From positions 1-43,717 of the forward strand of contig JAUPVH010000001.1 of the NCBI GenBank assembly GCA_030917125.1: a stretch of DNA of 43,717 bases, in the 5' to 3' direction. The notes beneath the pieces were generated by a model that was not told the DNA's origin, did no database searches, and saw only the letters and a program-made list of their open reading frames with translations. The stretch is from Patescibacteria group bacterium (lineage in GTDB: Bacteria; Patescibacteriota; Saccharimonadia; CAILAD01; GCA-016700035). A program made the position numbers and the translations under genes. Shown here piece after piece: positions 6,388 to 43,717 of this stretch. The stretch's first letter is position 1. Each line of letters begins with the position of its first letter.

Positions 6388-6390
6388 CTG

Positions 6391-12959: not shown

Positions 12960-13092
12960 GATGAGGTGCTCCCTGTAGTGGGTGGATGGAATCCAGCGGT
13001 TTGCTAGAACCTTACTATATTAGCACAAAATCTATAAAAAGTCAATATAAAAAGCTCCACAAAAACCCCTTCTTCAGGTATAATCTACAGAT

Positions 13093-27082: not shown

Positions 27083-27159
<77 letters not shown>

Positions 27160-27178
27160 GGATTTAATGAACATGTTA

Positions 27179-27209
27179 AACAGGCACTCTATTATGGGTG
27201 TCTGTTTTT
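27179..27209 (+). terminator. intrinsic terminator after tRNA-Ala
   Basis: Stem aacaggcac/gtgtctgtt followed by ttt(g). Confidence 0.55.
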
Positions 27210-27349
27210 GTCCTCGTAGTTAGAGCTCAGGCTGTCAATAGGCGGCGCCTGAAGAAGTCGATGCATGTCAAAAGGTCATGGACAATTACTCATAAATATG
27301 CTAATCTCATTGCACTTATTGTCGCACCTACTATTTGAAGGGGTACACC

Positions 27350-28408
27350 ATGTACGATCCATGGTTGAATGAACGGCAAGCAACTTCAAGCCGCGTTGAG
27401 GCAGAGGCTGCCCACGCGGCGCGCCAAGCGGCTAGCGTCCTAGGTCAGGAACAAGTCAGTCAGCAACTTGCTGAAGCACGAGCGATGGGCGAGCGACAAG
27501 CAATCGAAGCGGCACAGCGGCTTGAGGCTGAAGCTCACCATGTCCAACACATGCACTACTTGCAGGCGACCGGTCAAATCGGCGGTCATGCACCTGTAGC
27601 TGGTGTGAGTGGTATTTCTTCACCGTCTCAGGGCCTGCCAACACGGCCACCTCCTTACGTATCTCCTGACGAGAAAGCCGCCCGAGACCAAGCCATACTT
27701 GAACAGCAGCATGCTCATGCCCAAGCCAGGCTTGAAATGCAGCGCGCTCAAGCCGAGAGAGACGAGGCGGAAAGAATCCGACCTTTTCGAAGGAACCAGA
27801 AGCGAGCCCTGGCCGCAATACGTGAAAATGGTCCGGACCACTTGACTGGTGCCGAGATCATTCAGGCGGCAGTTTTGTTCCTGTCTACTGCATCTACTGC
27901 CTATCTGGGTATCAGCTTGTCGGTATTGCTTGTCACTGGTTCTTGGAGCGGTGGCTTCAGCTGGATGTGGATGTGTGCTCTGGTGGTTGCGCTGGTCATT
28001 CCAGTCACTCCTATAGTGCCGGGCTGGTTTGATTTCTCGGAAGGGCTGTGGCTCGTGTTTATTCCGATTCTGATCAGCACCCTGCATCACCAAGAAGAAT
28101 ATACCTTCTGGGGGATCGCGCCATTGTTGATTGTCGTCACTTTGCTCTACGTGGCTGTCTGGGTGATGAACCTGTTCGCCTGGCAAATCTGGGAGAAAAG
28201 TTGCCGCAGGGAGCGGAACCTACTTAGACAGAATCTGCCATGCGACTATTGCGGACGACCAGCAAAACACATTGTAATCACTGAGTCTTGTTTTGAAGGT
28301 GGCAGAATCACCGTTGTGGCTTGCTGGAAACATGGGTACTCGACTCCGTGGACTGAAGAACTCGAGGTTGCGCTCCTCGATAAAACTCTTCCGCCAAACG
28401 GACAGTGA
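27350..28408 (+). CDS. hypothetical membrane protein: Q/A-rich coiled N-domain, multi-TM core, C-terminal zinc ribbon
   Basis: ATG 27350 with a GAAGGGG Shine-Dalgarno. Hydrophobic block from about aa 170 to 280. C-terminal cysteine cluster in CDYCGRPAKHIVITESCFEGGRITVVACWKHG. Confidence 0.55.
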   Translation: MYDPWLNERQATSSRVEAEAAHAARQAASVLGQEQVSQQLAEARAMGERQAIEAAQRLEAEAHHVQHMHYLQATGQIGGHAPVAGVSGISSPSQGLPTRPPPYVSPDEKAARDQAILEQQHAHAQARLEMQRAQAERDEAERIRPFRRNQKRALAAIRENGPDHLTGAEIIQAAVLFLSTASTAYLGISLSVLLVTGSWSGGFSWMWMCALVVALVIPVTPIVPGWFDFSEGLWLVFIPILISTLHHQEEYTFWGIAPLLIVVTLLYVAVWVMNLFAWQIWEKSCRRERNLLRQNLPCDYCGRPAKHIVITESCFEGGRITVVACWKHGYSTPWTEELEVALLDKTLPPNGQ

Positions 28409-28413
28409 ACTCA

Positions 28414-28441
28414 CCGGGGGCTTTCTTAGGAGAGCCCCCGG
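28414..28441 (+). terminator. GC-rich terminator hairpin
   Basis: Stem ccgggggct/agcccccgg, then aatttgtta. Confidence 0.5.
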
Positions 28442-28485
28442 AATTTGTTACTGGAGTAATCTGTAGCTCGTATCTCTATAGGAAA

Positions 28486-28513
28486 AACGTGCATTTGGCA
28501 CGTTCTTTTTTTT
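28486..28513 (+). terminator. second intrinsic terminator (AT-rich, native style)
   Basis: Stem aacgtgc/gcacgtt followed by a T8 run. Confidence 0.6.
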
Positions 28514-28569
28514 CATTAATTTAAACTTATTAAACAGAGTGTATGATTTTGCGTGCTAAAATTAAGATT

Positions 28570-30021
28570 ATGAAAAAGCTTTTGCTCCGCTCACTCACGA
28601 TTGCGGGCTTAATCTCTGCCTTCACGCTTCTTTCTAGTCAACAAGCTTCGGCGGCAACCGTAACCCTTAATGGCGGTTGCAGTATTGATAATGCAATTCT
28701 TTCTGCAAATAACGACGCAGATACTGGTGGCTGTACAGGTTCCGGCATTTATGGCGATGATGAAATTATTGTCCCAACTGGCACATGGAATGTTGGTGCG
28801 AGTGTGCAAAGTGAAGGGAATCTTACTGTAACTGGCGCTGGTATGGGCGATAGTATTATTGATGCTGGGGATAACTACGCAGGGATCCAATGTAACAACA
28901 CAGGCGTTGGGCTATTGAACTTGGATGTAAATGGTCTAACTATTCGTAATACAGTAAGTAGTAGTGGAGCCTTTCCGCTCGCTGCCGGCAATTGCAATTT
29001 GAGTGTCTCGGATGTTGAAATTACAGATAGCCAGGAAGACGCGAATATTTATTTTAATCTAGAGCAAGATGGGGTGACGGCTCAGTTGAATATTTCTAAT
29101 GTATATATTCATGACACATTAGGTGCTGGAGTGACGGTATTAGTAGCTGGTGAAGGAGTAACCAATCAAGCAGATGTTCAGATAGATAACCTCACCGTAG
29201 CGCAGGCCAATAATAATAGTAAAGTCTTGGGGGGTGTTGCAATAAGCGCTGGCGACGACAATATTGCATCAAATCACACCGCCAATGTTCTGATACGCAA
29301 TAGCACTTTTACAGATAACGGTACAAATGACTCATATGGTGTGTTTGGGGTGGCGCAGTCGGGGATAGGCGGTGGCGTAGATACGGTTGATATTGCACTA
29401 GACAATATTACGATCGTAAATCATAAGGTGGATGGTAGCTTTCCAGCTTCTGGAATTTTGGCTGCTGCTTCTACTCCCACAGGAGGCACGGCAAATGTTT
29501 CAATTACCGCGACAAACGTGTTGCTGGCTAACAACACAGCTAACTCGGCACAAGCTAATTGTGCAGCCTTAGGATTTGGTTCAGGTGGTACAGAAACGGC
29601 AATAATTACTTCTTTAGGAAATAATATTACGGACGATACGAGTTGTGGCTTTACGAGCTCTGGCGACCAGCAAAACGTAACAAATATCCTCTCAACCCTC
29701 GGTCCATTGCAGGATAACGGTGGAAGTGTGCCCACTATGGCGCTACTCACAGGTTCACCGGCGATTGATGGAGGGGCGGTAGTGAGCGGCATCACAGCAG
29801 ATCAGCGAGGCGTAGCTCGTCCACAGTGTGCAGCCTTTGATGTTGGTGCTTATGAATACGATGGAGTATGTCCGACTTTAGTGAGTGCACCTTCTAATCC
29901 TAGTGAATCAGACTCTATGCAAAATACGTTGGCTGAAACGGGAGATAATTATTTGTCATATTTTGCAGGGTTCATCTTGCTCATAGCTACAGGTTTTGGG
30001 ATTTTAAGGAGAATAGTTTAA
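28570..30021 (+). CDS. sortase-anchored surface protein with a probable right-handed beta-helix
   Basis: Signal peptide MKKLLLRSLTIAGLISAFTLLSSQQASA. Repetitive N/G/T-rich body with a DQRGVARPQ...FDVGAYEY segment. C-terminal sorting signal LAETG plus hydrophobic helix plus RRIV. Confidence 0.75.
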   Translation: MKKLLLRSLTIAGLISAFTLLSSQQASAATVTLNGGCSIDNAILSANNDADTGGCTGSGIYGDDEIIVPTGTWNVGASVQSEGNLTVTGAGMGDSIIDAGDNYAGIQCNNTGVGLLNLDVNGLTIRNTVSSSGAFPLAAGNCNLSVSDVEITDSQEDANIYFNLEQDGVTAQLNISNVYIHDTLGAGVTVLVAGEGVTNQADVQIDNLTVAQANNNSKVLGGVAISAGDDNIASNHTANVLIRNSTFTDNGTNDSYGVFGVAQSGIGGGVDTVDIALDNITIVNHKVDGSFPASGILAAASTPTGGTANVSITATNVLLANNTANSAQANCAALGFGSGGTETAIITSLGNNITDDTSCGFTSSGDQQNVTNILSTLGPLQDNGGSVPTMALLTGSPAIDGGAVVSGITADQRGVARPQCAAFDVGAYEYDGVCPTLVSAPSNPSESDSMQNTLAETGDNYLSYFAGFILLIATGFGILRRIV

Positions 30022-30022
30022 T

Positions 30023-30047
30023 AAAAACCCCTCCAACGAGTGGAGGG
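30023..30047 (-). terminator. intrinsic terminator of the minus-strand methyltransferase (shared convergent site)
   Basis: Stem ccctcca/tggaggg. A T-run follows on the minus strand only. Confidence 0.5.
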
Positions 30048-30054
30048 AAGGGTG

Positions 30055-30810
30055 CTAGCGCTTTTCGGCGACGAAAAAGATGTCGCCACGCAGCAGATTG
30101 AGCTGAGGGCCGTAGTGGATCATCATCCGCAAGTAGTGCGTGATGATCTGGAGGTTGCGCCCGAGAGAACGGTGCGGAACGTCGTGGGTGGCCGCATCCA
30201 TTTCGCTCCGGAAACGTTGCCGTTGCCAGGGCCATGGCGAACCAGCAGCTACCACCGTGAAGCCGATGTGCTGAGTCAGCTGGTACAAGAGCGGCAGTGG
30301 CATGGGTCGCTTGTGGTCAGTGTCGAGCCAGAAGTTTTCGGCAGCCACGATGGGGTTGCGCATATTCGGCGTGACGATGACCATGCGACCACCTGAAGGC
30401 AGGTAGTCGTAGATGAGCTGGAGCAACTCGACCTGCTCATCGGCCTGGAAGTGCTCGATGAGGTGAGAGGCCACGATGGCATCGTACTCACCCGGATTGG
30501 CTTCGATGTGACCTTCCAGGAAGTCGAAGACCTCCCAATAGAGCACATCCAACTTTTGCTCGTCGAGCTTACGCACTTGTTCGGAGTTGTTGTCGATCCC
30601 GGTAACGCGTGTTCCGGCAGCCTCGAGTTCCTGCATGAGAAAGCCCTGGCCGCAGCCGAGGTCGAGCACGTGACTACGACCGCGCAGGTATGGAAAGATC
30701 ATGGCGATGTAGCTCATCGCGCCATCGCGGCCGCCGCTGAAGGCGTACGGATCTTGCTGTTTGCGGACGCCAACAGATTGCTGGCGCCTGATCTTCTCGG
30801 CGATTGACAT
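30055..30810 (-). CDS. class I SAM-dependent methyltransferase (GC-rich cassette)
   Basis: Motif I VLDLGCGQGF, then GIDNN, IVASHLIEH and GGRMVIVTP. Promoter-like ttgtct-N17-tatagt and a GGGGGA Shine-Dalgarno lie upstream. Confidence 0.75.
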   Translation of the reverse strand: MSIAEKIRRQQSVGVRKQQDPYAFSGGRDGAMSYIAMIFPYLRGRSHVLDLGCGQGFLMQELEAAGTRVTGIDNNSEQVRKLDEQKLDVLYWEVFDFLEGHIEANPGEYDAIVASHLIEHFQADEQVELLQLIYDYLPSGGRMVIVTPNMRNPIVAAENFWLDTDHKRPMPLPLLYQLTQHIGFTVVAAGSPWPWQRQRFRSEMDAATHDVPHRSLGRNLQIITHYLRMMIHYGPQLNLLRGDIFFVAEKR

Positions 30811-30900
30811 GGTGGTTCCCCCAGGGGTTCAAGGTGCGGATGAGTAGAAACTATACCATGCAGATAGCTCCAAGACAAGGAAAAGCGGTATACTAATGGT

Positions 30901-31269
30901 ATGCAACGTTGGCTTAAAAATTATCTCTCTACGTTTGGTCCACAATTTGTGCGCGGTATTGGCGTGCTGGCGACCGAAGCGCAGTTTGAGCGCAAAAAGT
31001 TTTTGGCCGCTACACATCCTTTACCAAATTTTTTTGAGACCACTAAACGGTTCGATAAAACTGATAAGTTAGCAGCACGTCTTCGTTTGGCGGTGTGGGC
31101 AAGTATTGCGCTAGCGTGGATGTTCTCGATTACGGTCTTAGCATTTTTGCGCTTGAACGCCACGCAAATCATTGCACTTATTCTCATCGTGAGTCTTCCG
31201 GCCCCATATATCTTGCTCAGAATCGCCGCTTGGTGTTTGCCAAAACGCCCGAAGGCTAGTCGCAACTAA
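30901..31269 (+). CDS. hypothetical 2-TM membrane protein, 122 aa
   Basis: Track ORF. The -10 tatact (30889-30894) is 6 nt from the ATG. Confidence 0.5.
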   Translation: MQRWLKNYLSTFGPQFVRGIGVLATEAQFERKKFLAATHPLPNFFETTKRFDKTDKLAARLRLAVWASIALAWMFSITVLAFLRLNATQIIALILIVSLPAPYILLRIAAWCLPKRPKASRN

Positions 31270-31293
31270 TTCACACCAGGTATACTGACAACT

Positions 31294-32331
31294 ATGCAAA
31301 CAGGGGTGAGATTAGGAATTTTAATTGGGGGGCCATCTCCCGAATATGAGGTCTCGCGTGCTTCGGCAGATAATATTTTGGCTGCGGTTGAGCAGCTGGG
31401 GTATGCCACCAAGCCAATATTAGTTACACCCGACCATAGTTGGTACGTGTATTCTGATCGCTCTGCGTATCTGGCAAATGAGTATGAGGAAGCGTTTGGA
31501 GTTCGGGATGCGGTGGAGAAGTTGCCCTATCTGATTGATGCGGCGCTGATTGCCATGCACGGGGTGTTTGGTGAAGACGGCGGTGTGCAGCGGCTGCTCG
31601 ACCGGGCGGGGTTGCCGTATCAGGGGAGTGGTGTGCGCGCCAGTCGGCTGGCGTTTGATAAACATGCTGCCAGCCAAGTGCTGCGTCGTGCAGGCTTTGC
31701 TGTGCCGGATTACACGTTATTAGAGCGAGCCAAGTGGGTGGTGGCGCGACCGCGGATTATTCGTCAGGCGGTGGCGGCGTATGGTTTGCCGGTGGTGGTG
31801 AAGCCGAATGCTAGTGGAAGTTCAATTGGCGTGACAATCGCGCGCGATACTTCTGAGTTGACCGAGGCGCTTGAGCTAACCAGCGCACAGCACGGGCAGG
31901 TGATTGTGCAGCGCTTTATGCGTGGCCACGAGGTTACCTGTGGGATTTTAGAGCAAGCCGGTGAGGTTTTTGCTTTGCCGCCGACATTAATCCAGCCGGT
32001 TGGGCAGCACTTTTTTGACTACAAGGCAAAATATACGGCTGGGGCGACGGAAGAAATTACGCCGGCACCGTTCTCTGAAGCGACAAATGCCGCTATTGGG
32101 AGAACTGCGCTAGGGGTGCATCGGGCGCTAAAGTTGCAGGGCTACAGTCGGGTGGATATGATCTTGGCTCAACGTCGGTTGTGGGTGCTGGAGGCTAACA
32201 CGCTGCCGGGGATGACCAACACAAGTTTGTTGCCTCAAGCTGCCGCCGCCATCGGGATAGATTTTGTTGGCCTGGTTGGCGAGCTGGTGCAACACGCACT
32301 GACACGCCCAGAAGTGGTAGAATTATCATAA
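31294..32331 (+). CDS. ddl: D-alanine--D-alanine ligase
   Basis: ATP-grasp layout: GGPSPEYEVS, HGVFGEDGGVQ, PVVVKPNASGSSIG and EANTLPGMT. Confidence 0.92.
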   Translation: MQTGVRLGILIGGPSPEYEVSRASADNILAAVEQLGYATKPILVTPDHSWYVYSDRSAYLANEYEEAFGVRDAVEKLPYLIDAALIAMHGVFGEDGGVQRLLDRAGLPYQGSGVRASRLAFDKHAASQVLRRAGFAVPDYTLLERAKWVVARPRIIRQAVAAYGLPVVVKPNASGSSIGVTIARDTSELTEALELTSAQHGQVIVQRFMRGHEVTCGILEQAGEVFALPPTLIQPVGQHFFDYKAKYTAGATEEITPAPFSEATNAAIGRTALGVHRALKLQGYSRVDMILAQRRLWVLEANTLPGMTNTSLLPQAAAAIGIDFVGLVGELVQHALTRPEVVELS

Positions 32332-33617
32332 TGATAAAAAGATTTGCCGGTAAAATTGTAGTGCGTCAGCTGCGACGCTATGTGCAGCGTTTGCTCTCGG
32401 TGCATGACATTACGGTAGTAATGGTGACGGGTACGGTTGGTAAAACCAGCACGAAGATGGCGATTGGTCGCACGCTTGAGGCTGGCGGTCACAAGGTGTG
32501 CTATTCCGAGGATAGTTATAATACTGAGTTTGGTGTGCCGTTGGCATTGTTTGGCTTGAAGGCGCCAGATAGAATCTCGAGCCCGGCGGCTTGGCGAGCT
32601 GTATTTAAGCAAATGTCTGACATGATTGATGGCTATCCGTATGACTTAGTCGTACTCGAGATTGCCGAGGATGAACGCGCTATGATGACGCCGTGGGTGC
32701 GACTGATGCAGCCTAAGATTGGTGTACTTACCAGTGTGAGCCCGGCACATATGGAGCGCTTTAGTTCGCTCGAAAAATTACGGGATGATGCGATTGCGTT
32801 AGTGGGTGAATCGGAGCAAGTCTTTTATAACGCCGATTTTGATGATGTCCGCGAAGTGATGGAACGTCGCAAAGGCGCGGTCGCATATGGTGTTGGGCGT
32901 GGAGTAATCCGTTTTGAAAATATCATGCGCGGCAAGAATGGCCGACTGGCAGCTGATCTTTATTTAGGTAAGGAACATCAGGTAGTGCGTACCCAACTTA
33001 TTGCCCAGCATGGCTTGAGCGCGTTACTTGGTGCGGCCTGTGTGGCGCGAGATCTTGGCATGAGTGGTGAAAAAATCGCGACTGCTTTAGCAAAAATTCC
33101 GTCTCCAGTTGGGCGAATGCGTTTGCTTGATGGGGCAAACGGCGCAACGTTGATTGATGATACGTATAACTCGAGCCCGGCAGCGGTAAAGGCTGGTCTA
33201 GATACGCTGATGGAGATTCCGGGCCGAGGTCATATTGCGGTTTTGGGGAGCATGAATGAGCTTGGTGTTGCGGCCGCGGATCTGCATCGAGAAGTTGGTG
33301 AGTACGCAGCAACGAAAAACCTGGATATGCTCGTAACGGTTGGTAAGGTTGCTGGGCAGTATATTGGACCGGCGGCTGAGGATGCGGGCATGGAGCGGAT
33401 TCGCATTAAACAGTTCCGCACGCCGTACGAAGCTGGTCATTATCTTAAAAAGCACGTTGCAAAAGGTGATGTGGTGTTTATAAAAGGCTCGCAAAATGGT
33501 GTATTCACTGAAGAGACGAGCCGTATATTATTAGCACCCGGCTTGCAGCCAGCGCGCGAATTAGTCCGACAGTCTAAAACCTGGAAACGTAAAAAGAAAA
33601 AGAGCTTTGGCCTGTGA
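32331..33617 (+). CDS. murF: UDP-N-acetylmuramoyl-tripeptide--D-alanyl-D-alanine ligase MurF
   Basis: Mur ligase P-loop VTGTVGKTSTK, DDTYNSSP and the ddl-murF pairing. The start overlaps the ddl stop (TAATG). Confidence 0.88.
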   Translation: MIKRFAGKIVVRQLRRYVQRLLSVHDITVVMVTGTVGKTSTKMAIGRTLEAGGHKVCYSEDSYNTEFGVPLALFGLKAPDRISSPAAWRAVFKQMSDMIDGYPYDLVVLEIAEDERAMMTPWVRLMQPKIGVLTSVSPAHMERFSSLEKLRDDAIALVGESEQVFYNADFDDVREVMERRKGAVAYGVGRGVIRFENIMRGKNGRLAADLYLGKEHQVVRTQLIAQHGLSALLGAACVARDLGMSGEKIATALAKIPSPVGRMRLLDGANGATLIDDTYNSSPAAVKAGLDTLMEIPGRGHIAVLGSMNELGVAAADLHREVGEYAATKNLDMLVTVGKVAGQYIGPAAEDAGMERIRIKQFRTPYEAGHYLKKHVAKGDVVFIKGSQNGVFTEETSRILLAPGLQPARELVRQSKTWKRKKKKSFGL

Positions 33618-34234
33618 GTGATGTAAAAATAGCTATTCATCATAGTTGGCAGGAGAATCCCGAGCTATTGCACGTCCAGCTCATGGAGCCACGGCAACGC
33701 TGTGGCTTGGCTTGTTTAGAGATGATTATTGAGTCTCAACTTGGGCATCACGTGCAAGCTTCGGAAATTTTTCGTCGGGCTGAAAGTTACGGCGCGATTA
33801 ATGACCACAATGACTGGTGGCATCCAGGTCAAGTTCGCGTTCTCACAAGTTACGGCCTGGTAGCCTGGCGGCGAAATTGGACTGCCCCTTCTCAAGATCC
33901 GGAATTTTTTGAAGAGAATGAGGGCTATGATACGGCACAGATGTCAGCGGTGAAATATCAAATTAGTTTAGAGGCAGATAGGCGTTCGCTTGCCGATAAA
34001 TTTTTACTCTCGCTGCATGATTCATTGGAGCTCGGTAATCCGGTAATCGTGAGTGTAAAATCTGGGTTTTCGGATAATAAAGAAAATCATCAAGTGGTAA
34101 TTTCTGGGTATCGGGCTGAAGACAGGATGTTCTTCGTACATGATCCCGTGCAGCAGTCTGGTCCCACAGTCGTGCCCGAACACTATTTGGTAGAGTACGC
34201 AAACTATTGGGCATTATTTAGCTACCATGCCTAG
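33614..34234 (+). CDS. stand-alone C39-like papain-fold cysteine peptidase
   Basis: QRCGLACLEMII matches the C39 catalytic Cys motif (Q..CG.ACL.MI). NHQVVISGY...FFVHDP matches the catalytic His/Asp region. The GTG start overlaps the murF stop. Confidence 0.65.
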   Translation: MSDVKIAIHHSWQENPELLHVQLMEPRQRCGLACLEMIIESQLGHHVQASEIFRRAESYGAINDHNDWWHPGQVRVLTSYGLVAWRRNWTAPSQDPEFFEENEGYDTAQMSAVKYQISLEADRRSLADKFLLSLHDSLELGNPVIVSVKSGFSDNKENHQVVISGYRAEDRMFFVHDPVQQSGPTVVPEHYLVEYANYWALFSYHA

Positions 34235-34242
34235 GGGAATTC

Positions 34243-34914
34243 ATGACTGAAAAATATAATTGGCGTGAATATTACGAACATCACAAAAATCGTGAGCCTC
34301 GCGAGGAATTAACTCAGCTGTTGGATGTAATGCGTCGGGAGCGAGGGTCTTTTGAGGATATGTCGGCTTTAGAAATTGGTGCCGGCAATATGATTGAGAC
34401 TAAAGCTTTGTTAGACGCTGGTTTTGGTCACGTCACCGCAACCGATATTACAGACTTGGCAGAGAATATGGCTGCATCATTACAAATGGATGTGAACGAT
34501 TTTGCGAATGATGTGGAGCGGCTGGAGTTTCTGAAGGTTAGTCATGAAGAGCTACCGGACCATTTGCAAGCCGAGTCTTTGGATCTTGTCGTGGCGTACT
34601 TAAGCTTACAGTTTGTGAATCCTGAAGGTTTTCAGCGCTTGTGGCAATCGTTAGTGCAGGCTGTAAAGCCAGGTGGGAGAATTACGCTGGATTTAATTGG
34701 TGATCACGACGGCTGGGCAAAAGAAACTCTCGCTGATGAATCTGTCAGATATAAAGATATGAACTTTCATAGCAGGGAAGAAGTTGAGCGGTTATTAGCT
34801 GGCTTTGAGCAAGTGCAGGTAATTGAAGACGATAGTGACGGAAAAACTTCAGATGGCGTAGCTAAGCATTGGCATATTTTTCATATTCAAGCCCAAAAGC
34901 CAACAGACGCCTAA
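34243..34914 (+). CDS. class I SAM-dependent methyltransferase
   Basis: Motif I ALEIGAGNMIE, then ATDI, VVAYLSLQF and PGGRITLD. Confidence 0.75.
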   Translation: MTEKYNWREYYEHHKNREPREELTQLLDVMRRERGSFEDMSALEIGAGNMIETKALLDAGFGHVTATDITDLAENMAASLQMDVNDFANDVERLEFLKVSHEELPDHLQAESLDLVVAYLSLQFVNPEGFQRLWQSLVQAVKPGGRITLDLIGDHDGWAKETLADESVRYKDMNFHSREEVERLLAGFEQVQVIEDDSDGKTSDGVAKHWHIFHIQAQKPTDA

Positions 34915-34953
34915 GCCTCGATTTACTCCTGATAATCAGGTATAATTGCGCGC

Positions 34954-37149
34954 ATGAGTAAGGCCAATTACGATCCCTCGGCAACCGAGGCCAAATGGCG
35001 TGCGGTTTGGGATAAGTCGAAAATATACGCGACGCCAGAAAATCCCAAGCGCCCATATTATAATCTCGTGATGTTCCCATATCCATCGGGCAACTTGCAT
35101 GTTGGGCATTGGTATAATTTTGCGCCAGCCGATACACTCGGACGGTTTGAGCGGATGCGTGGCAAAGATGTATTGCAACCACTCGGCTATGACGCCTTCG
35201 GTTTGCCGGCTGAGAATGCGGCAATTAAAAATGGTATTCCAGCGGATGAGTGGACCGATAAAAATACTGTCAGTTTTTATGAGCAGTACAAAACGCTGGG
35301 TGGGATGTATGACTTAGGTCGCTTGGTAAATACCTCCAAACCAGAGTATTACAGGTGGACGCAATGGTTGTTCTTGCAGCTGTATCATGCCGGTAAAGCG
35401 GTGCGCCGCGATGGCACGGTCAACTGGTGCCCGAGTTGTCAGACCGTGCTCGCCAACGAGCAGGTTGTACATGGTGAGTGCGAACGCTGTGGCACAACAG
35501 TCGAGCGTAAAAATCTCAAGCAATGGTATTTTACGATTACCGATTACGCCGATCGTTTGCTCGATGATTTAGATGGGCTCGATTGGCCGGAACGAGTTAA
35601 GCAACAACAGCGCAACTGGATTAGTCGTAGCGAAGGTGCACGCATCGAGTTTACATTGTATGGCAAAGACGAAACGCTCGAGGTATTTACTACTCGTCCG
35701 GATACCATTTTTGGCGCCACCTTTATGGTCGTCGCACCTGAACATCCTTTGGTTGCAGAGCTCACTACTGACAAGCAGCGCGCTGAAGTTGAGCAGTACC
35801 AGCAGTGGGCTGGCGCTCGTACCGATGTTGATCGTATGGAGGCCAAAGAAAAAACTGGCGTGTTTACTGGCGGCTACGTAGTGAACCCGGCAAATGCCGA
35901 AAAAATCCCGGTGTGGGTGGCAGACTATGTGCTGATGGGCTACGGCACTGGTGCCATTATGGCTGTACCAGCCCATGATGAGCGCGACCATGCTTTCGCG
36001 AAGAAATACAATCTACCGATCATTGAGGTTATTGAGCCGGTAACAGGTAAGCATCAGGATAATCCTGAGCACCGTAAGAGTATTGTGGCCTTGGTGCATA
36101 ATCCGCGTACCGACGAAGTTTTAGTGATTAACTGGGGCGCCAAGCAGGGTGGTCATCTTTTGGTGGGTGGTGGTCGTGAGGCGGATGAAGACATTACCGC
36201 TTGTGCAACTCGAGAAGTGATCGAAGAAACAGGCTATACTGGCCTGAAATATATTGGTCAGACCGGCAAAATCCACCATCATTACTTTGCGCACTCTAAG
36301 GGTAAAGCTCGGCACATCGAAGCTGTTGGAGTGCATTTTGAACTCGTTGATAATGAGAAAATCGAAACCAAACTAGAGCGAGATGAGGTTGGGAAGTTTA
36401 GTGTGGAATGGAAGCCAGCCCGCGAAGTTGAAACGATGCTGCAGGATGAGCTGCATAAATACGTGTTTGATGCGTTCTTGCGACAAAATATTCATGCCGG
36501 CACGGGTGTGATGATTAACTCTGGTAAGTTTGATGGCCTGAAAAGTACCGAGGCAAAAAGCCAGATAGTTGCCTGGCTGCATAAAGGTGGTTTTGGTAAA
36601 GCCACCACCAACTACCGGCTGCGTGATTGGCTGATTTCTCGCCAGCGTTACTGGGGCGCGCCAATTCCGATGATTTACTGCGAAGAATGTGGCGTAGTGC
36701 CGGTACCAGAAAAAGATCTGCCGGTTGTTCTACCAGTTGGGCAGGAGTTCGATAAGACTGGCCGCTCACCATTGCACACGCATCCGGATTACGCAAAAGT
36801 TGACTGTCCGCAGTGCGGCAATGCCGATGCTCGCCGCGAGACGGATACCATGGATACATTCGTAGATTCCAGCTGGTACTTTTTGCGCTACCCAAATCCG
36901 AACTATGACAAGGCGGCGTTTGATCCAGAAGCTGTTAAGAAGTGGCTGCCCGTCGATCGTTACATGGGTGGTGTGGAGCACGCTATTTTACATCTTTTGT
37001 ACTCGCGTTTTATTACTAAGTTCTTGCATGATCAAAAGCTCGTAGCTTTTGATGAGCCATTCACCAAGCTAATTAATCAGGGAATGATTCTTGGCCCAGA
37101 TGGTAATAAAATGAGTAAGTCTAAGGGTAACGTTATTGACCCGCTGTAG
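34954..37149 (+). CDS. leuS: leucyl-tRNA synthetase, N-terminal 731-aa fragment (Rossmann fold, CP1 editing domain with inserted Nudix domain, KMSKS), ending at an in-frame TAG
   Basis: [11 protein letters not shown] (HIGH), [31 protein letters not shown] and KMSKSKGN. The -10 tataat (34941-34946) is 7 nt from the ATG. Confidence 0.9.
   Translation: [731 protein letters not shown]
36034..36504 (+). other. Nudix-hydrolase domain inserted inside the LeuRS editing (CP1) domain
   Basis: About 157 residues lie between LPIIEVI and [12 protein letters not shown], where E. coli and B. subtilis (from memory) have about 13-20. A perfect Nudix box [23 protein letters not shown] (Gx5Ex7REVxEExGY) lies at 36169-36237. 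Confidence 0.8.
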
Positions 37150-37152
37150 TAT

Positions 37153-37815
37153 GTGGAGAAATACGGCGCCGACGCGGTACGTTTGTATCTGATGTTTATG
37201 GGGCCGTGGGAAGATGGTGGTCCGTGGGATCCACAGCGCTTTGAAGGTACGTATCGCTTCTTGCAAAAAGTCTATGCCACGATTTCTGCCGCGTATGAAG
37301 TTCAGGAAATTGATGCTGCTGCCGAAACTACGCTGGATTCTGCACTGCACAAACTGGTTAAGAAAGTTACTGAAGATCTGGAAAACACCCGCTTTAACAC
37401 AGCGATTGCTGCCATGATGGAGTACATTACATTGCTTGGAAAAAGCCAACGCGCTGGTGATGTGTCGGTAGAGTTGTGGCGTGAACACGTACAGACCTTC
37501 GTGCGCCTGATTGCTCCATTTGCACCGTTTTTAGCTGAAGAATTGTGGCAAGAACTTGGCGAACAAGAGAGCGTGCATCTGGAAGCTTGGCCAACGTTTG
37601 ATGAAACAAAAGCACGTGATGAGCTCGCAACGATTGCCGTTCAGGTAAATGGTAAGCTGCGCGGTGAGTTTGTCATGGAGGCCGGCAAGTTGCCAGGCGC
37701 AATCGAAGAGCAGGCTCGTGGCTTGAATGCCGAACACAATTGGACACGCGGTGCACAAGTGGTGAAGGTGATTGTGGTACCAGACCGGCTCGTCAACTTT
37801 GTCGTCGCTCGGTAG
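37153..37815 (+). CDS. leuS: leucyl-tRNA synthetase, C-terminal 220-aa fragment (anticodon-binding and C-terminal domains), same frame as the N-fragment
   Basis: [15 protein letters not shown] follows KMSKS exactly as in intact LeuRS. The GTG at 37153 is one codon after the TAG at 37147-37149. Confidence 0.85.
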   Translation: [220 protein letters not shown]

Positions 37816-37835
37816 AGTGGGTGTGTTAACCCGCA

Positions 37836-37864
37836 TTGACAAAAAACTTATTCTTTGCTATAAA
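37836..37864 (+). promoter_or_regulatory. sigma70-like promoter driving a GC-rich cassette
   Basis: ttgaca (37836-37841), 17-nt spacer, tataaa (37859-37864). Confidence 0.5.
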
Positions 37865-37924
37865 TAGCGGGTTATTGCATCTCGCAGTATCCGCACCCCA
37901 TACGAGACCCTTAGGAGGTCCACC

Positions 37925-38467
37925 ATGTCCGTCACGGACGAACCCCGAACCGAGAAGCAGAAGGCGGTCAAGTCACCGCCCCAGCCGATCGACGAGGACA
38001 AGAAGAAGAACAAGGACGTCGTTGTGATCTCCGCAGCTGTCGTCTTCATCTTTGCGTTCTTGGCGTTGGTAGTCTTCCTCAGCAACGTCATCAACATCTC
38101 GCCGGAGGTCAACTCCGCCGAGGACATCGCCACGGTCTACGACCACGCGATCGTCTTGCAGGCTCGAGAGGGCGACACCCTCGAGACCGCCTCGCTGGCA
38201 GTGTTCCCGAACACGCTCATCGAGCAGCGGGTCCGCGAGGACAAGCTCTCCGATGAGGCCAAGGCCCTGGAGTTGGCTCGGTACCAGGCCGAGTGGCTGC
38301 GCTTGTCGCGTCTACTCACCGGCACCACCGGCACCACGCTCACGGCCGGCGAGTTCTTCGCCGTTCCGGCCAAGCCGGACGAACCGGGTGCGATCGATGT
38401 CGATCGAGCACCCACGGAGATCCGTCGGCTCACCGAAGAGGCCCAGCAGGCTTCCTCAGGCGGCTGA
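37925..38467 (+). CDS. hypothetical single-pass membrane protein, 180 aa (GC-rich cassette)
   Basis: AGGAGG Shine-Dalgarno before the ATG. K/D-rich N-terminus, then TM helix VVISAAVVFIFAFLALVVFL. Very strong G/C third-position bias selects this frame over four overlapping track ORFs. Confidence 0.6.
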   Translation: MSVTDEPRTEKQKAVKSPPQPIDEDKKKNKDVVVISAAVVFIFAFLALVVFLSNVINISPEVNSAEDIATVYDHAIVLQAREGDTLETASLAVFPNTLIEQRVREDKLSDEAKALELARYQAEWLRLSRLLTGTTGTTLTAGEFFAVPAKPDEPGAIDVDRAPTEIRRLTEEAQQASSGG

Positions 38468-38485
38468 CCCTCGGGTCGGCAATCA

Positions 38486-38534
38486 GCCCGCGTGCTTTCC
38501 TCCCCCAGGAGAGAGCACGCGGGCATTCTTTTTT
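38486..38534 (+). terminator. intrinsic terminator
   Basis: Stem gcccgcgtgct/agcacgcgggc (11 bp) with an inner tcct/agga extension, followed by attctttttt. Confidence 0.7.
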
Positions 38535-38553
38535 CTTAGACACTTTCAATATG

Positions 38554-38582
38554 TTGACAAAAACTGACAACTAAAGTATAAT
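38554..38582 (+). promoter_or_regulatory. consensus promoter of a leaderless mRNA
   Basis: ttgaca-N17-tataat. The -10 ends 6 nt before ATG 38589, so the predicted start site falls on or next to the A of the ATG. Confidence 0.6.
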
Positions 38583-38588
38583 AAGCGC

Positions 38589-39350
38589 ATGCAAATCGCA
38601 AATCTTGCCAAAAAACTCGAAGCCGTAGGTCTCACTGAAAAGCAGGCCAAAGTGTATGTTGCCGCTCTATTCTTGGGGCCGGCAGCGGTTCAGCGTATTG
38701 CCGAACAAGCTGAGGTTAACCGAGCTACAACCTACGTAATTTTGGCAGAACTTGCGGATATGGGTCTGGTTTCTGAAACTACCGAAGGTAAAAAGACGGT
38801 ATTTGTGGCTGAACCACCAGATGCAATTGATCGTTATCTCGGAGCAATGGAGAAGGAAATTGACGACCGTAAAGTCCAGCTAAAAGGTGTGATGAAAGAA
38901 CTAAATGAAGTGAATCGCTCTGAAATAGCAGGTGATGCGCCAGTTGTAAGGTTTTTTAAGGGGCCTGAAGCAATACTTGCACTTAGCTCATATCTCAAGC
39001 GTAAGGCGAAGCCAAACGAAGTAGTTTATGGTATGACAAATCTTGATGAACTCGACAAGATGGCACCTGGTTATACCGAAACGAATGCGTTGAAACGCAA
39101 GAAAAAGAAAATTGCTGGTAAGGGTTTTTATTCAGGGTCCAGAGAATTAGTTAGTGACCCAGAGTCGTTACGCGAGACTATCAAGCTTACGGAAGATGTT
39201 AGGGCGGACCTCAATCTATACGAGGAAAGAGCAAGTATAGTTACTTACTCTGGCGATCAGCCAGTAGGTATTGTGATTGAGGGTAAAGAACTCGTATCGG
39301 TTTTACGTCAGTTATTCGACCTGGCGTGGAAAAATCACAAGAAGAAGTAG
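38589..39350 (+). CDS. TrmB-family transcriptional regulator
   Basis: N-terminal winged-helix LEAVGLTEKQAKVYVAALFLGPAAVQRIAEQAEVNRATTYVILAELADMGLV, typical of TrmB. C-terminal effector-like domain. Confidence 0.75.
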   Translation: MQIANLAKKLEAVGLTEKQAKVYVAALFLGPAAVQRIAEQAEVNRATTYVILAELADMGLVSETTEGKKTVFVAEPPDAIDRYLGAMEKEIDDRKVQLKGVMKELNEVNRSEIAGDAPVVRFFKGPEAILALSSYLKRKAKPNEVVYGMTNLDELDKMAPGYTETNALKRKKKKIAGKGFYSGSRELVSDPESLRETIKLTEDVRADLNLYEERASIVTYSGDQPVGIVIEGKELVSVLRQLFDLAWKNHKKK

Positions 39351-39362
39351 TGTTAGTTATTA

Positions 39363-39391
39363 TTGACAAATAAGTAATGCTTGTGTATAAT
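39363..39391 (+). promoter_or_regulatory. consensus promoter with no ORF behind it
   Basis: ttgaca (39363-39368), 17-nt spacer, tataat (39386-39391). Confidence 0.55.
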
Positions 39392-39397
39392 TCGAGC

Positions 39398-39805
39398 GTT
39401 GCTAGCAAAAGCAAGAGGTAAGCCAGTCTTCCTCTGGCTGAGCTGAGACTGGGAGGAAGTTACTTCCAGCCTGCCTAACGGCACAACATGACCCGAAAGG
39501 GGTATTGTGATGGGCGAGTTCACCTGAGCTTCCATCCGAACGTCGGCAACGACATCCAGAGGCTTCGCTCGAAAGCCGAACCTGATCTAGCGTAGAACGC
39601 CGGATCGAAGCATGACCCAAACTGCCAGGTGGCGCAAAAAAGTTGGGCGCGCTTGCTCGACATCCTTGAATTAAGCAGCAAATAACGCAAAAAAGACAGG
39701 AAGAAGAGCATCAAATCGAGCATCGGGGTGACCCCGTAACACGCGGGGTCACCCCTAAACATCTCTATTAAGAACTTATGCAAGACCTTAAACGGGTCTT
39801 TTTTT
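39398..39805 (+). ncRNA. candidate ~400-nt structured RNA of unknown class, bounded by its own promoter and terminator
   Basis: No credible ORF; only antisense low-complexity track ORFs. GNRA-capped hairpins (ccc GAAA ggg, gtcg GCAA cgac). ggaag tta cttcc. A 12-bp perfect hairpin 39725-39736/39744-39755. Terminator aagacc/ggtctt plus a T7 run at 39782-39805. Confidence 0.45.
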
Positions 39806-39946
39806 GTGTGTAATGACGGAAAATAATCTAGGTTACTCATAGTCAGCAAATTGTTGCTGATAGAGTTTATCAACAAATAGGCACTATTTTGCGGAATATA
39901 TGAAACTGTACTGATTGAGAGATAGGAGAAAAAATGCAAATAATAA

Positions 39947-39975
39947 TTGACAATAAGGTATGATATTGCTATAAT
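39947..39975 (+). promoter_or_regulatory. consensus promoter of the GC-rich three-gene operon
   Basis: ttgaca (39947-39952), 17-nt spacer, tataat (39970-39975). Confidence 0.55.
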
Positions 39976-40066
39976 CTCATAGATCTGTCAACCCCGCTTA
40001 GCGCGGGTGTAGATGGATGCAACTTCGCAAATCCAATCCCAATTCCACCCATCAAGGAGTCCCAAC

Positions 40067-40768
40067 GTGTCCAACGACACCAGCAACGAGACCAGCCTGG
40101 CAGTTCCCGCACCATCGCGTCGCGCGCTCGCGCTCGTCGAGATGACCGAGACTGTCCAGGAGCTCATCGACACCCACGGCGTCGAGCTCGACATCCCTGT
40201 CGAGCAGGTCGCCAGCATGGCGGTGGAGCGCAAGCTCTCCGTCGAAGAGGTCGACGCTTTGCTCCTGGCTCGCCAGGACTACGCCGCCCGCTTCCCGGTG
40301 ATGGATCTGCTGCTTCGCAGCGGCTTCACCACCGATCAGATCCATGCGGCCTACGCCTTCGTGGATCAGCATGACCTCGAGCAGGATCGCAAGATCGAGG
40401 CTGCGCCCATCTCGGGCGTGGTCGAGGAGCCCGAGAGTCTGGCCGACCTGGTGCGTCGTTCGACCACCGAGCCGGCCCGTGCCCGCGAGCATGAGGGTGC
40501 GACCGAGATGGACGTGAATCGTCGTCACAAGTACGTGGCGATGATCGCAACCTGGTTCGCAACCTTCGACGTCTTCGACGACCTCGCTGAGGATCTCGAT
40601 GGCGCCATCAGTCTGTTGACCGACCTCGCCGCCAAGGCGCGCGAGGCGCGTTTCGTCAAGGCCGAGATGAACGACCTCGATGTACTCACGAGACTGCTGG
40701 TTCGAGTTCAGGGCCAGGGTATCGAGACGTACGACGGGGTCCTCCGACTCTTCGCCGAAAGGAGCTGA
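40067..40768 (+). CDS. hypothetical acidic protein (GC-rich operon, gene 1)
   Basis: GTG 40067 has an AAGGAG Shine-Dalgarno at 40054-40059 (the track start ATG 40013 is possible but lacks one). Third-position G/C bias selects this frame over the antisense and alternative ORFs. No motif recognised. Confidence 0.5.
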   Translation: MSNDTSNETSLAVPAPSRRALALVEMTETVQELIDTHGVELDIPVEQVASMAVERKLSVEEVDALLLARQDYAARFPVMDLLLRSGFTTDQIHAAYAFVDQHDLEQDRKIEAAPISGVVEEPESLADLVRRSTTEPARAREHEGATEMDVNRRHKYVAMIATWFATFDVFDDLAEDLDGAISLLTDLAAKAREARFVKAEMNDLDVLTRLLVRVQGQGIETYDGVLRLFAERS

Positions 40769-40773
40769 AGAAC

Positions 40774-41874
40774 ATGACGGGAATCAACCCGTTTCTGGTG
40801 CTCGGTCTGAACGTGACGGTGCTGGGGGGATTGTCCGATGAGGACATCCTCCAGCTCGCCAAGAGTCAGTACCGAGCACTCTCGCAGATCCATCACCCCG
40901 ATCGCGGTGGTGATGCCGATCTGTTCGCACTCCTCTCGGATGCCTACGAGTCCCTCCAGGACTCACGGGCCCGTCAGGAGAAGCTCGAGGAGTACCGCAC
41001 CTCTCGTTTGGACCAGCTCACGCTGGTCCAGCAGGAGCTCACGGATCTCGAGCGTCAACGTCGACGAGATAATCGTCGACTTCGCCGACATACCGCCGAC
41101 TTCATGGCGGACTTCGTGCGGTCACAGCACACCGAGACGGCCCAGCCGCTCAACGTGCACGATCTCACGCTGGTCGTGCAGGATCGGCACTCCGACTTCA
41201 TGTCGGGGGCTCTGTCGACCGACGCTGAGCGGAACAAGGCGGAGTTCATCGAGCACTACACTACGCATGGCTTCAAGGTCGTGCGGCGCGTTGGTGGTCA
41301 CGTTTCGGTGGCAGACTTGCAGGTAATGCAGGTGATGCCATCGAGCGACTTCACGCCGGCCCGCTTCAAGCAGTTTGCTGCCGAGTTCACCCACGTCGGT
41401 GCCCGTAAGAAGGCGCCGTACCCCAGCTACAACAGCTGGTACCGGGTGGACCTTGAGTCGACTGAGGCTTACGAGAATCAGTTGCGACAGCTTGAGATTG
41501 AGGCAGAAGCCGAGGGTCGTACCCTCGAGGATGCCCCAATCGATCCGACGTCAGCGCTCTACTGCTACGAAGAGCAGTCGACAGAAGCGACCGACTGGGC
41601 GCTGATTGGCACACTGTCAGACGGCCTCATCGGAACCGACGCCAGGGGCGACGCTGCTCCTGGTGCAGCCATGGAGCGCATGCTCGAGTCGGCTGCCGTG
41701 CCGAATCTCCGCGAGGAGCTCGAGCGCGGTTATAGCTTCGAGCGGTTCCAGTACTACCTGGACCAGCTCGAAGCTGAATTCTCCGAAGATGGTTACCTTG
41801 TGGCCGCGCGCCTTGAGGACGACCAAATTCGGTTCATGCTGGTGGGGAAGATCGTCCCTCATCAGGAACTCTGA
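40774..41874 (+). CDS. J-domain (DnaJ-like) protein with an uncharacterised ~290-aa C-terminal region (GC-rich operon, gene 2)
   Basis: N-terminal INPFLVLGL...LAKSQYRALSQIHHPDRGGDADLFALLSDAYESL carries the HPD tripeptide in a J-domain helix II/III context. No Gly/Phe or zinc-finger DnaJ regions. AAAGGAG Shine-Dalgarno. Starts 5 nt after the gene 1 stop. Confidence 0.75.
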   Translation: MTGINPFLVLGLNVTVLGGLSDEDILQLAKSQYRALSQIHHPDRGGDADLFALLSDAYESLQDSRARQEKLEEYRTSRLDQLTLVQQELTDLERQRRRDNRRLRRHTADFMADFVRSQHTETAQPLNVHDLTLVVQDRHSDFMSGALSTDAERNKAEFIEHYTTHGFKVVRRVGGHVSVADLQVMQVMPSSDFTPARFKQFAAEFTHVGARKKAPYPSYNSWYRVDLESTEAYENQLRQLEIEAEAEGRTLEDAPIDPTSALYCYEEQSTEATDWALIGTLSDGLIGTDARGDAAPGAAMERMLESAAVPNLREELERGYSFERFQYYLDQLEAEFSEDGYLVAARLEDDQIRFMLVGKIVPHQEL

Positions 41875-41894
41875 GACACAACAAGGAGGACCAA

Positions 41895-42182
41895 GTGGGA
41901 CGAACCCCGCGACGCACCCCCACAAAGGAGGAGCTCGACAAGTGGGAGCAGCTGCTGGCCGGCGACGGCCTGGCAGCAATCCCCGACGAGCACCCTGATG
42001 AAGGGGAACCACCAACCGAGTTCGAAGTCGGTCTCGGCTCCGCGTCAGCTCCCCCTGACGATGAGGAGTCCGAGGCTCTCGAACTGGGTGCGGATCTGCC
42101 CGATGGCATGGACGGTGAGGACGAACTCGTGGATGAACACGAGGGAGACCTCCACGCCTACATCATCGTGGACGAGGGCTGA
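41895..42182 (+). CDS. hypothetical highly acidic protein, 95 aa (GC-rich operon, gene 3)
   Basis: GTG start with an AAGGAGG Shine-Dalgarno at 41883-41889. D/E-rich sequence. The terminator follows. Confidence 0.5.
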   Translation: MGRTPRRTPTKEELDKWEQLLAGDGLAAIPDEHPDEGEPPTEFEVGLGSASAPPDDEESEALELGADLPDGMDGEDELVDEHEGDLHAYIIVDEG

Positions 42183-42205
42183 GCTTTCGAGTTCGGCTTC
42201 TCAAG

Positions 42206-42236
42206 CGGCCAGCGCATGCGCTGGCCGTTACTTTTT
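42206..42236 (+). terminator. intrinsic terminator of the three-gene operon
   Basis: cggccagcg catg cgctggccg (9-bp stem) followed by ttacttttt. Confidence 0.7.
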
Positions 42237-42409
42237 ACTGACGTACTCTGACGCATAATTAAGCTATCGATAATAAAATCTGACAAATAAATGCACTTTT
42301 TCATGCTGAAATTCAGTTTATTTATAGTTAAAATAACAGTTTTTATACGAAAATCTACAGATACATAGCTAGTTTTCAGCAAAAAATCATAATAAATTGA
42401 CAATAAGTA

Positions 42410-42438
42410 TTGACAAAAAATATAGCATATGCTACTAT
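42410..42438 (+). promoter_or_regulatory. promoter with an operator-like perfect palindrome in the spacer
   Basis: ttgaca (42410-42415; a second ttgaca at 42397-42402), 17-nt spacer, tactat (42433-42438). The 12-bp palindrome tagcatatgcta lies at 42423-42434. Confidence 0.45.
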
Positions 42439-42467
42439 ATCATCATTGTGAATTTCGTCAGGAGTTC

Positions 42468-42524
42468 ATGACAAAAAAGAACCTTTACTTTAGCTGGCTG
42501 GTGGTCATATTTTTGTGCGAGTAA
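42468..42524 (+). CDS. 18-codon upstream ORF / leader peptide MTKKNLYFSWLVVIFLCE
   Basis: AGGAG at 42460-42464, 3 nt before the ATG. The ORF runs through the 5' arm of the start-codon-sequestering hairpin. Hydrophobic peptide. Confidence 0.35.
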   Translation: MTKKNLYFSWLVVIFLCE

Positions 42525-42551
42525 CATATATCGCCTAAAAATATGACCACC
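42500..42551 (+). promoter_or_regulatory. 15-bp perfect hairpin sequestering the start codon of ORF 42543..42776
   Basis: ggtggtcatattttt (42500-42514) pairs with aaaaatatgaccacc (42537-42551). The ATG at 42543-42545 lies inside the 3' arm, and no Shine-Dalgarno precedes it. Confidence 0.55.
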
Positions 42552-42776
42552 ACATGCAACAGCATCACCCATGTCCATCCCCGGGCCCACCAGCCCCTCA
42601 ACAGGTACTGTGTCCACTGCGGTCGTCTCGGCCGAGCTCCGGAGTGCGCGAGCTGCCGTGAGGCCGCAACAGAGCCGAAGGAGGTGGACGACTACACGGG
42701 CTTCATCATCACCGACGACGGCGACGAGATCGGCCTGATCTCCGACCCGTACCGAGAGTGCATGGAGTTGGTGTAG
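42543..42776 (+). CDS. hypothetical small zinc-ribbon protein, 77 aa (GC-rich cassette)
   Basis: CVHC...CASC cysteine pairs, acidic C-terminus, G/C third-position bias. Confidence 0.5.
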   Translation: MTTTCNSITHVHPRAHQPLNRYCVHCGRLGRAPECASCREAATEPKEVDDYTGFIITDDGDEIGLISDPYRECMELV

Positions 42777-43717
42777 TCACTATCGAATAAGATTCGGGGT
42801 ACTTTGGTAGTGCCTGGCAACAGAAGTTGATCGGAGAGAAAAAGAATCCGTGACACATTAACCCGTCAGTGAAGACGTAAACCCCGAGCCAGTGAGATGT
42901 GGCTTTCAAGCGCGATTCCCGTGCAGCTCATACCCCTTCTTGGGGCAGATTACCTGCTCCAAGAAGGAGCAGTCCGAGGATAGTTATCCTCGCTGATGAG
43001 TCCTGATAGGACGAAACTGCTTTGAAAACTTAGGTAATCCCACGCTGGCTGTTATGCCACACGAGCGTATGTGCGCATTGCCTATCAATATTTTTCAAAC
43101 ACCACACATCAGTTTTTAGTTCTTTTAAACCTGGAAGCCTATACTTCCAGCGCGGCGTAGGCGGCGTTGTTCCTCGAGGGCAGTGCTCGCTCGCGTCGCG
43201 CCGGGAGTATAGCTTCCAAAGTACAAGGGCATCGAAAGCCATTCCTCTCTCCTCTCCAGGTGAGTAGGTGTCCTGCTGGGTCGAGTTCGTCTCGACCCAG
43301 CGAATTCGCTAACCGTTGACCCGCGTACGAATGCGGGGGCCTTTTGAAGCGAGAGCTACGCAGTTGCGTCCTCGAGTGAAACAGGCTGAGCCCATGCGTG
43401 TGGGCTTGCTGGGAGATAAAATTGGTAAAACTGCGCCTGCGTCGGTAACGACGACACCCCAAAGGGTGACCACGAAAGTGGTGGGAAGTAAACAAAGGTA
43501 GAAAAGGGGACCCCAACGGTTATAATGCGGTATTGTCTTCCCCTTTGGTCAGACCTTGAAAAAGTCTGGTTCTATGAAAGGACGATGCCGAGCTCGCGCG
43601 ACTTCCACACCCTTCACCCTTCCTCTTCGTGGAGGTCGCTGCGCGCCGGGAGTGCCGCTTGTGGTTTCTAAGGCTTCGGTCTTGATCACTTGCGTCCACA
43701 CTGTGGGGTAATAGCAC
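42777..43717 (+). other. ORF-poor, hairpin-dense GC-rich region (candidate large structured RNA or RNAs), truncated by the window end
   Basis: The only track ORFs here are low-complexity and Arg/Ser/Pro-rich. Long-range pair tcggggt (42793-42799) with accccga (42880-42886). Hairpins at 43021-43099, 43133-43217, 43276-43300, 43320-43345 (terminator-like) and about 43591-43650. CU-rich tracts at 43243-43257 and 43607-43628. Confidence 0.4.
42969..43020 (+). ncRNA. type III hammerhead self-cleaving ribozyme
   Basis: gcagUC / cgaggat-aguu-auccucg (stem I) / CUGAUGA / gucc-ugaua-ggac (stem II) / GAAA / cugc (stem III, open). All invariant core positions are present. The predicted cleavage site is after C42974. 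Confidence 0.8.

Follow-up and report, generated by a model that had tools for sequence, protein, structure and literature searches.

The leuS gene and its in-frame TAG

The window, by which we mean the whole stretch of 43,717 nucleotides that was analysed, carries on its forward strand a leuS gene for a bacterial-type leucyl-tRNA synthetase (LeuRS) at 34954..37815, comprising 953 codons plus the stop if codon 732 is counted as sense. The closest named relatives of this DNA are MAGs labeled Patescibacteria, Candidatus Saccharibacteria or Saccharimonadales. From the ATG at 34954 to the stop at 37813-37815, straight translation gives 731 residues, a TAG and 221 further residues. The product matches the Pfam families tRNA-synt_1, LeuRS editing domain and Anticodon_1 (PF00133, PF13603, PF08264), and aligns over its full length to the LeuRS structures of T. 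thermophilus and E. coli, with E-values from 1e-200 to 1e-252 (8e-252 for PDB entry 1h3n). By Pfam and by structure-sequence match it has the make-up of a class Ia bacterial LeuRS, namely a catalytic domain with its KMSKS motif, the CP1 editing domain and the anticodon-binding parts. The KMSKS catalytic loop is encoded at 37108..37122 on the forward strand (residues 719-723), as read from the translation and from the alignment to MSKSK 638-642 of the T. thermophilus enzyme. According to the same kind of alignment the leucine-specific domain is absent, and a short linker, GPDGN (residues 714-718), precedes KMSKS in its place.

A separate feature of this gene is a Nudix-domain insertion within the CP1 editing domain (36040..36495, forward strand), which spans 152 residues (363-514), includes a complete Nudix box and is matched by Pfam PF00293 at residues 373-497 with an E-value of 2.2e-12. 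T. thermophilus LeuRS has 13 residues where the window enzyme has this insert. Among distant leuS loci of Saccharibacteria- or Patescibacteria-like type, at least 15 have a homologous insert, and a literature search for a LeuRS-Nudix fusion in Saccharibacteria returned no paper describing it. The insertion is independent of the TAG discussed below, and this conserved addition to the editing domain is the more interesting biology of the gene.

Upstream of leuS, a TATAAT box resembling a -10 element lies at 34941..34946 on the forward strand and ends 7 nt before the ATG; judging from the position of this box, the leuS transcript is possibly leaderless. For about one third of the gene starts in the window, among them that of leuS, a -10-like hexamer lies 6-9 nt ahead of the start codon, against a background of 7.6%; leaderless transcripts may be possible in the window more generally.

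The in-frame TAG occupies 37147..37149 on the forward strand, at codon 732, where all other assemblies carry CAG (Gln). By Pfam and alignment it lies eight residues past the last serine of KMSKS, at the boundary with the anticodon-binding domain. In a full-length product the peptide across the junction would be GNVIDPLQYVEK; as separate products, the 731-residue piece would end in GNVIDPL and the downstream piece would begin (M/V)EKYGADAVR. The first-pass annotation had described this TAG as interrupting a continuous leuS after KMSKS with nothing missing relative to an intact LeuRS. Both statements hold: the translation is continuous on either side of the stop, and the junction aligns gap-free to the structure sequence of T. 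thermophilus LeuRS, in which Pro650 is the counterpart of the TAG. One codon past the TAG is an in-frame GTG (Val734; 37153..37155, forward strand), which the intact allele has as well and which serves as the start of the annotated 220-residue protein. As had been noted earlier, no Shine-Dalgarno-like match precedes it (none 3-14 nt upstream); about one third of the window's genes lack one too. Overlapping the GTG is an ATG at 37151 in another frame. In the deposited record leuS is accordingly entered as two proteins of 731 and 220 residues, and both are in NCBI nr.

Further pairs of ORFs that share a frame were considered as split genes and set aside. The pairs metG/tatD and ruvX/yceG are distinct genes by Pfam. 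The pair 30040/30451 has no Pfam match, and in the pair 30901/31294 the first ORF is without a Pfam match and the second is ddl. Apart from leuS, no gene of the window is broken by an in-frame stop.

Codon 732 in independent assemblies and in relatives

Flanking proteins (a TrmB-like protein, a methyltransferase, an aminotransferase and a protein of 541 residues) were used as exact-sequence queries and retrieved 27 loci, nearly all of them in Logan assemblies made independently from SRA runs. Together these loci cover positions 1-27128 and 29243-43717 of the window and leave a stretch of about 2.1 kb (27129-29242) uncovered. Over positions 1-41261, minus the uncovered stretch (about 39 kb), there is one position at which the window departs from every covering contig, 37147, the first base of the TAG. 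This private single-nucleotide difference on the forward strand is a T in the window and a C in every independent contig covering the site (six of six covering loci). The T at 37147 is therefore private to the deposited record.

Codon 732 is CAG in at least seven runs (SRR24011150, 148, 146, 144, 139, 145 and SRR17318432). Five of them (SRR24011150, 146, 144, 139 and 145) contain complete leuS copies, in which 37147 is the only one of 2,862 nt that differs from the window; SRR24011148 likewise has CAG at this codon. The strain in SRR17318432 is more divergent (98.8% identity) and still carries CAG. In the Logan assemblies leuS is called as one gene of 953 residues, the protein being that of the window except for Gln732. 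This intact protein occurs on nine contigs and the 731- and 220-residue fragments on one, the window itself. An exact look-up of the two fragments in the contig index gave no matches, and the cluster look-up gave the window's contig only. None of the contig ends among the compared loci falls within about 31 nt of 37147, so the compared runs give no hint of a variant bubble there.

The end of the contig behaves differently from the rest. In the hypervariable stretch from 41.3 to 43.7 kb the window contig has a genotype of its own, and it therefore stems from a sample or population slightly different from that of the retrieved Logan contigs.

Close relatives agree with the independent assemblies. 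The 90%-identity protein cluster contains 18 members, of which 15 were listed; these include at least 10 distinct variants of 953 residues, with a group identity of 93%. Among these 15, every member that covers the site has Gln732 and is intact there. The next relative, a JGI contig with 87% amino acid identity, has CAG at codon 732. Since near-identical assemblies and close relatives all carry CAG, the ancestral codon is CAG as judged by sequence comparison, and what turned Gln732 into TAG is a C-to-T transition at 37147. The first-pass annotation had proposed a GAG-to-TAG change from the glutamate of B. subtilis, which these sequences do not bear out. Its question of whether related genomes have the same TAG is answered in the negative by the same-population assemblies, by the listed cluster members that cover the site and by the 87% relative. 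It had also regarded a sense codon in read data as the mark of an error; such a codon is now seen by proxy, through independent read assemblies of other runs.

Protein-guided scans of genome_contigs and metagenome_contigs retrieved relatives of at most 60% identity, which served for base rates. The scans gave about 160 more distant leuS loci from genome and metagenome collections, with a single internal stop among them, a TGA that lies 56 nt away from the end of its contig. This TGA (locus L001) replaces a conserved glycine (GMIL-G-PDG) and would need at least two base changes; it was treated as an end artefact. Two short relatives that start at the KMSKS methionine (P0006 and P0018, of 233 and 235 residues) were considered as independent splits and rejected, as both abut contig ends and are truncations. 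The residue at codon 732 is variable in the distant homologues (E in 68, D in 41, A in 14, P in 8 and Q in 5).

Explanations for the TAG

The TAG is probably a consensus or assembly error, or else a low-frequency variant kept by the assembler in this contig. Three reasons make it most likely that the T reflects an artefact or a minority allele and not the dominant allele of a living population. It is a singleton base, at odds with independent assemblies of this population, in a 39-kb block that shows no other difference. If leuS, an essential gene, is present once, as presumed, a nonsense allele is a priori very unlikely to become dominant. Finally, uncurated MAG contigs carry local errors that place wrong protein sequences in databases (Chen et al., 2020, PMC7111523). 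Under this explanation the real leuS of the organism would be an uninterrupted gene encoding a single LeuRS of 953 residues, with no special mechanism involved, and the two database proteins would be annotation by-products. Two observations weigh on the other side. The window contig is otherwise error-free over 39 kb, i.e., its general error rate is low, and its distinct genotype at 41.3-43.7 kb means that its population could carry a real private SNP.

The wild-type codon lies in a CTGCAG site, a PstI-type palindrome, and methylation-linked base-calling error or restriction-site avoidance were considered as specific causes. Both were rejected, as the window has 17 intact sites where 10.6 are expected.

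Alternatively, the TAG could be a very recent, non-adaptive nonsense mutation that became dominant in the sampled sub-population, with the cells surviving transiently or at reduced fitness. We regard this as doubtful. The variability of the site among distant homologues and its location just past KMSKS, at the boundary of the anticodon-binding domain, speak for it, as does the contig's own genotype in its variable end. Function could then be retained in one of two ways. Near-cognate readthrough of the UAG would typically insert Gln, which is the wild-type residue. Otherwise, translation would terminate at the TAG and re-initiate at the GTG 4 nt downstream, yielding a catalytic and editing piece of 731 residues and an anticodon-binding and C-terminal piece of 220 residues, for which non-covalent association is proposed. 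The latter is helped by the many window genes that lack a Shine-Dalgarno site and by the existence of tight stop-start junctions, such as the TAG-ctg-GTG between metG and tatD. A workable two-piece LeuRS is known from Aquifex (PMC3643597). Because the break falls at a domain boundary and at a variable position, both routes, readthrough on the one hand and re-initiation with assembly on the other, would be plausible, though only in principle.

Several points count against a dominant nonsense allele. It was found in no other assembly, and its dominance in what is presumably the only copy of an essential gene would be a priori very improbable. The GTG is shared with the intact allele, so nothing has evolved for re-initiation, and the out-of-frame ATG overlaps it. 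In E. coli, a T directly after TAG makes for strong termination. That the T allele is both real and dominant, in a Patescibacteria-type cell with one leuS that makes LeuRS as two pieces or by Gln-inserting readthrough, is highly unlikely. If it were, the window would offer a snapshot of the first step toward a split synthetase; an essential synthetase would here put up with a newly arisen nonsense codon at a domain boundary, of which natural cases are rare.

Programmed recoding, in which TAG would be read as Gln by a suppressor tRNA(CUA) or under an alternative genetic code, is barely credible. It would fit the wild-type residue, and Gln is the amino acid inserted in known TAG reassignments. 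Nevertheless, the stop codons of the likely genes of the window are TAA in 18 cases, TGA in 12 and TAG in 11. Besides the two leuS pieces, TAG terminates 10 ordinary likely genes, including metG (which ends at 6387), with Pfam-complete products where these were scanned; the earlier view of TAG as a genuine stop elsewhere in the window, based on metG, is thus upheld and extended to nine other genes. No further in-frame TAG was found among the approximately 40 likely genes of the window, and relatives carry CAG, not TAG, at codon 732. The only tRNA gene in the window is tRNA-Ala(GGC).

A dying pseudogene beside an intact second copy of leuS at another place in the genome is equally hard to credit, and nothing in the window speaks for it. 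Over its 2,862 nt the copy has no further lesion and no other substitution when set against the intact allele, and the 222 codons downstream of the stop are under strong constraint across the clade (pN 0.07 vs. pS 0.82, against the 87% relative). In addition, small genomes of the Patescibacteria type rarely have duplicate synthetases.

A naturally split, heterodimeric LeuRS similar to the alpha-beta enzyme of Aquifex, with a new split site, is effectively refuted because the gene is intact in near-identical genomes. The one thing that speaks for it is the layout, a pair of ORFs that share a frame and have lost no residues, and this layout is found in one record only. The split is not conserved even in genomes that are 100% identical elsewhere, nor in the cluster relatives, nor in the 87% relative. 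Moreover, the downstream piece appears to lack a ribosome-binding site of its own, extra terminal residues are absent, and the leucine-specific domain in which the Aquifex split sits is missing from the window enzyme. Of the options listed by the first-pass annotation, an error of sequencing or assembly and a nonsense mutation of recent date thus keep their support, whereas a natural split, termination-reinitiation and programmed readthrough are left unsupported, the TAG being absent from the other assemblies of the population, from the listed cluster members that cover the site and from the 87% relative.

Implications and comparison with known systems

The LeuRS of this lineage is an ordinary single chain, and there is no sign of a new split synthetase or of a recoding event. 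The practical value of the comparison is one of curation. The fragments of 731 and 220 residues in NCBI nr stem from one questionable base, and the intact sequence of 953 residues with Gln732 should be used in their place.

Three known situations are useful to place the locus. The first is the alpha-beta LeuRS of Aquifex aeolicus, which the window would resemble, if its record were taken at face value, in consisting of two chains, the second of which carries the C-terminal part that binds tRNA. The Aquifex split lies inside the large leucine-specific domain, upstream of KMSKS (PMC3643597), and is a feature of its lineage. In contrast, the break in the window lies past KMSKS, in an enzyme without a leucine-specific domain, and is absent from all relatives.

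The second comparison is with LeuRS of the Mycoplasma mobile and B. subtilis type, in which the leucine-specific domain is likewise lacking; the GPDGN of the window enzyme resembles the GKDG linker of M. mobile. The window enzyme differs from them in retaining the full CP1 editing domain together with the Nudix insertion.

The third, and the closest to our preferred explanation of an artefact or minority variant, is the class of consensus and SNV errors described in MAGs (Chen et al., 2020, PMC7111523). As in those cases, a single base breaks a conserved gene into two annotated proteins, and independent assemblies of the same population contradict the base in the record. Errors of this class are defined by read-level support for the consensus base; the present discrepancy is seen by comparison of assemblies. 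Unlike the typical case, the rest of the window contig is error-free over 39 kb.

Gene junctions and gene starts

The break in the LeuRS gene leuS, an in-frame TAG (37147-37149) followed one codon later by GTG (37153-37155), has a close counterpart within the window. At 6385-6393, tatD begins with a GTG that lies one codon past the metG TAG and in the same frame, so that the spacing between stop codon and GTG is equal at the two sites. This shows that the layout seen in leuS is common at ordinary gene junctions in the window.

A Shine-Dalgarno match is absent from many genes of the window. At 10 of 29 gene starts (for example at 34941-34946, 13079-13084, 38577-38582 and 31281-31286), a TANNNT hexamer resembling a -10 box, often in the form gGTATAAT, ends 6-9 nt upstream of the start codon. 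The corresponding rate at random positions is 7.6%, which suggests that many transcripts in the window, including that of leuS, are leaderless.

Contig ends and a related leuS

Apart from position 37147, the first 41 kb of the window do not differ from near-identical Logan contigs, which are independent assemblies of SRA runs. In contrast, dozens of SNPs as well as indels separate them from the window at 41262-43717, marking a strain-hypervariable contig end. The 40-42 kb stretch has a GC content of 62%, compared to about 49% elsewhere in the window, and contains a weak DnaJ-like ORF of 366 aa and unannotated sequence. Just beyond the other, upstream edge, the window is adjoined by a UvrD/PcrA-type helicase (locus L186, 1-495; Logan contig SRR24011150_28047), in which precomputed Pfam matches to intein splicing and Hint domains indicate that it may contain an intein, in a small genome.

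In the leuS of a relative with 72% amino acid identity (locus L001; GCA_964504625.1, contig CAZDEK010000029.1), the codon for the conserved Gly in GMIL-G-PDG is replaced by a TGA (55-57). The contig ends 56 nt away, and the TGA is probably an artefact of that position.

Domain architecture of LeuRS

The CP1 editing domain is interrupted at aa 363-514 by a Nudix hydrolase domain (36040-36495, plus strand; Pfam PF00293, E 2e-12), in which the Nudix box G-x5-E-x7-REVIEETGY is present in full. A homologous insert occupies the same site in at least 15 distant Saccharibacteria- or Patescibacteria-like leuS loci (42-50% identity), such as the retrieved loci L084-L092, L100 and L006. Our literature search found no account of a Nudix insert in LeuRS; hydrolysis of Ap4A or of an adenylate would be only a guess at its activity. 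T. thermophilus LeuRS has a 13-aa loop at this position.

The window LeuRS also lacks the leucine-specific domain, and has instead a short GPDGN linker directly before KMSKS (37093-37107, plus strand; aa 714-718). Residues 580-637 stand in its place in the T. thermophilus enzyme. Mycoplasma mobile LeuRS has a similar linker, GKDG.
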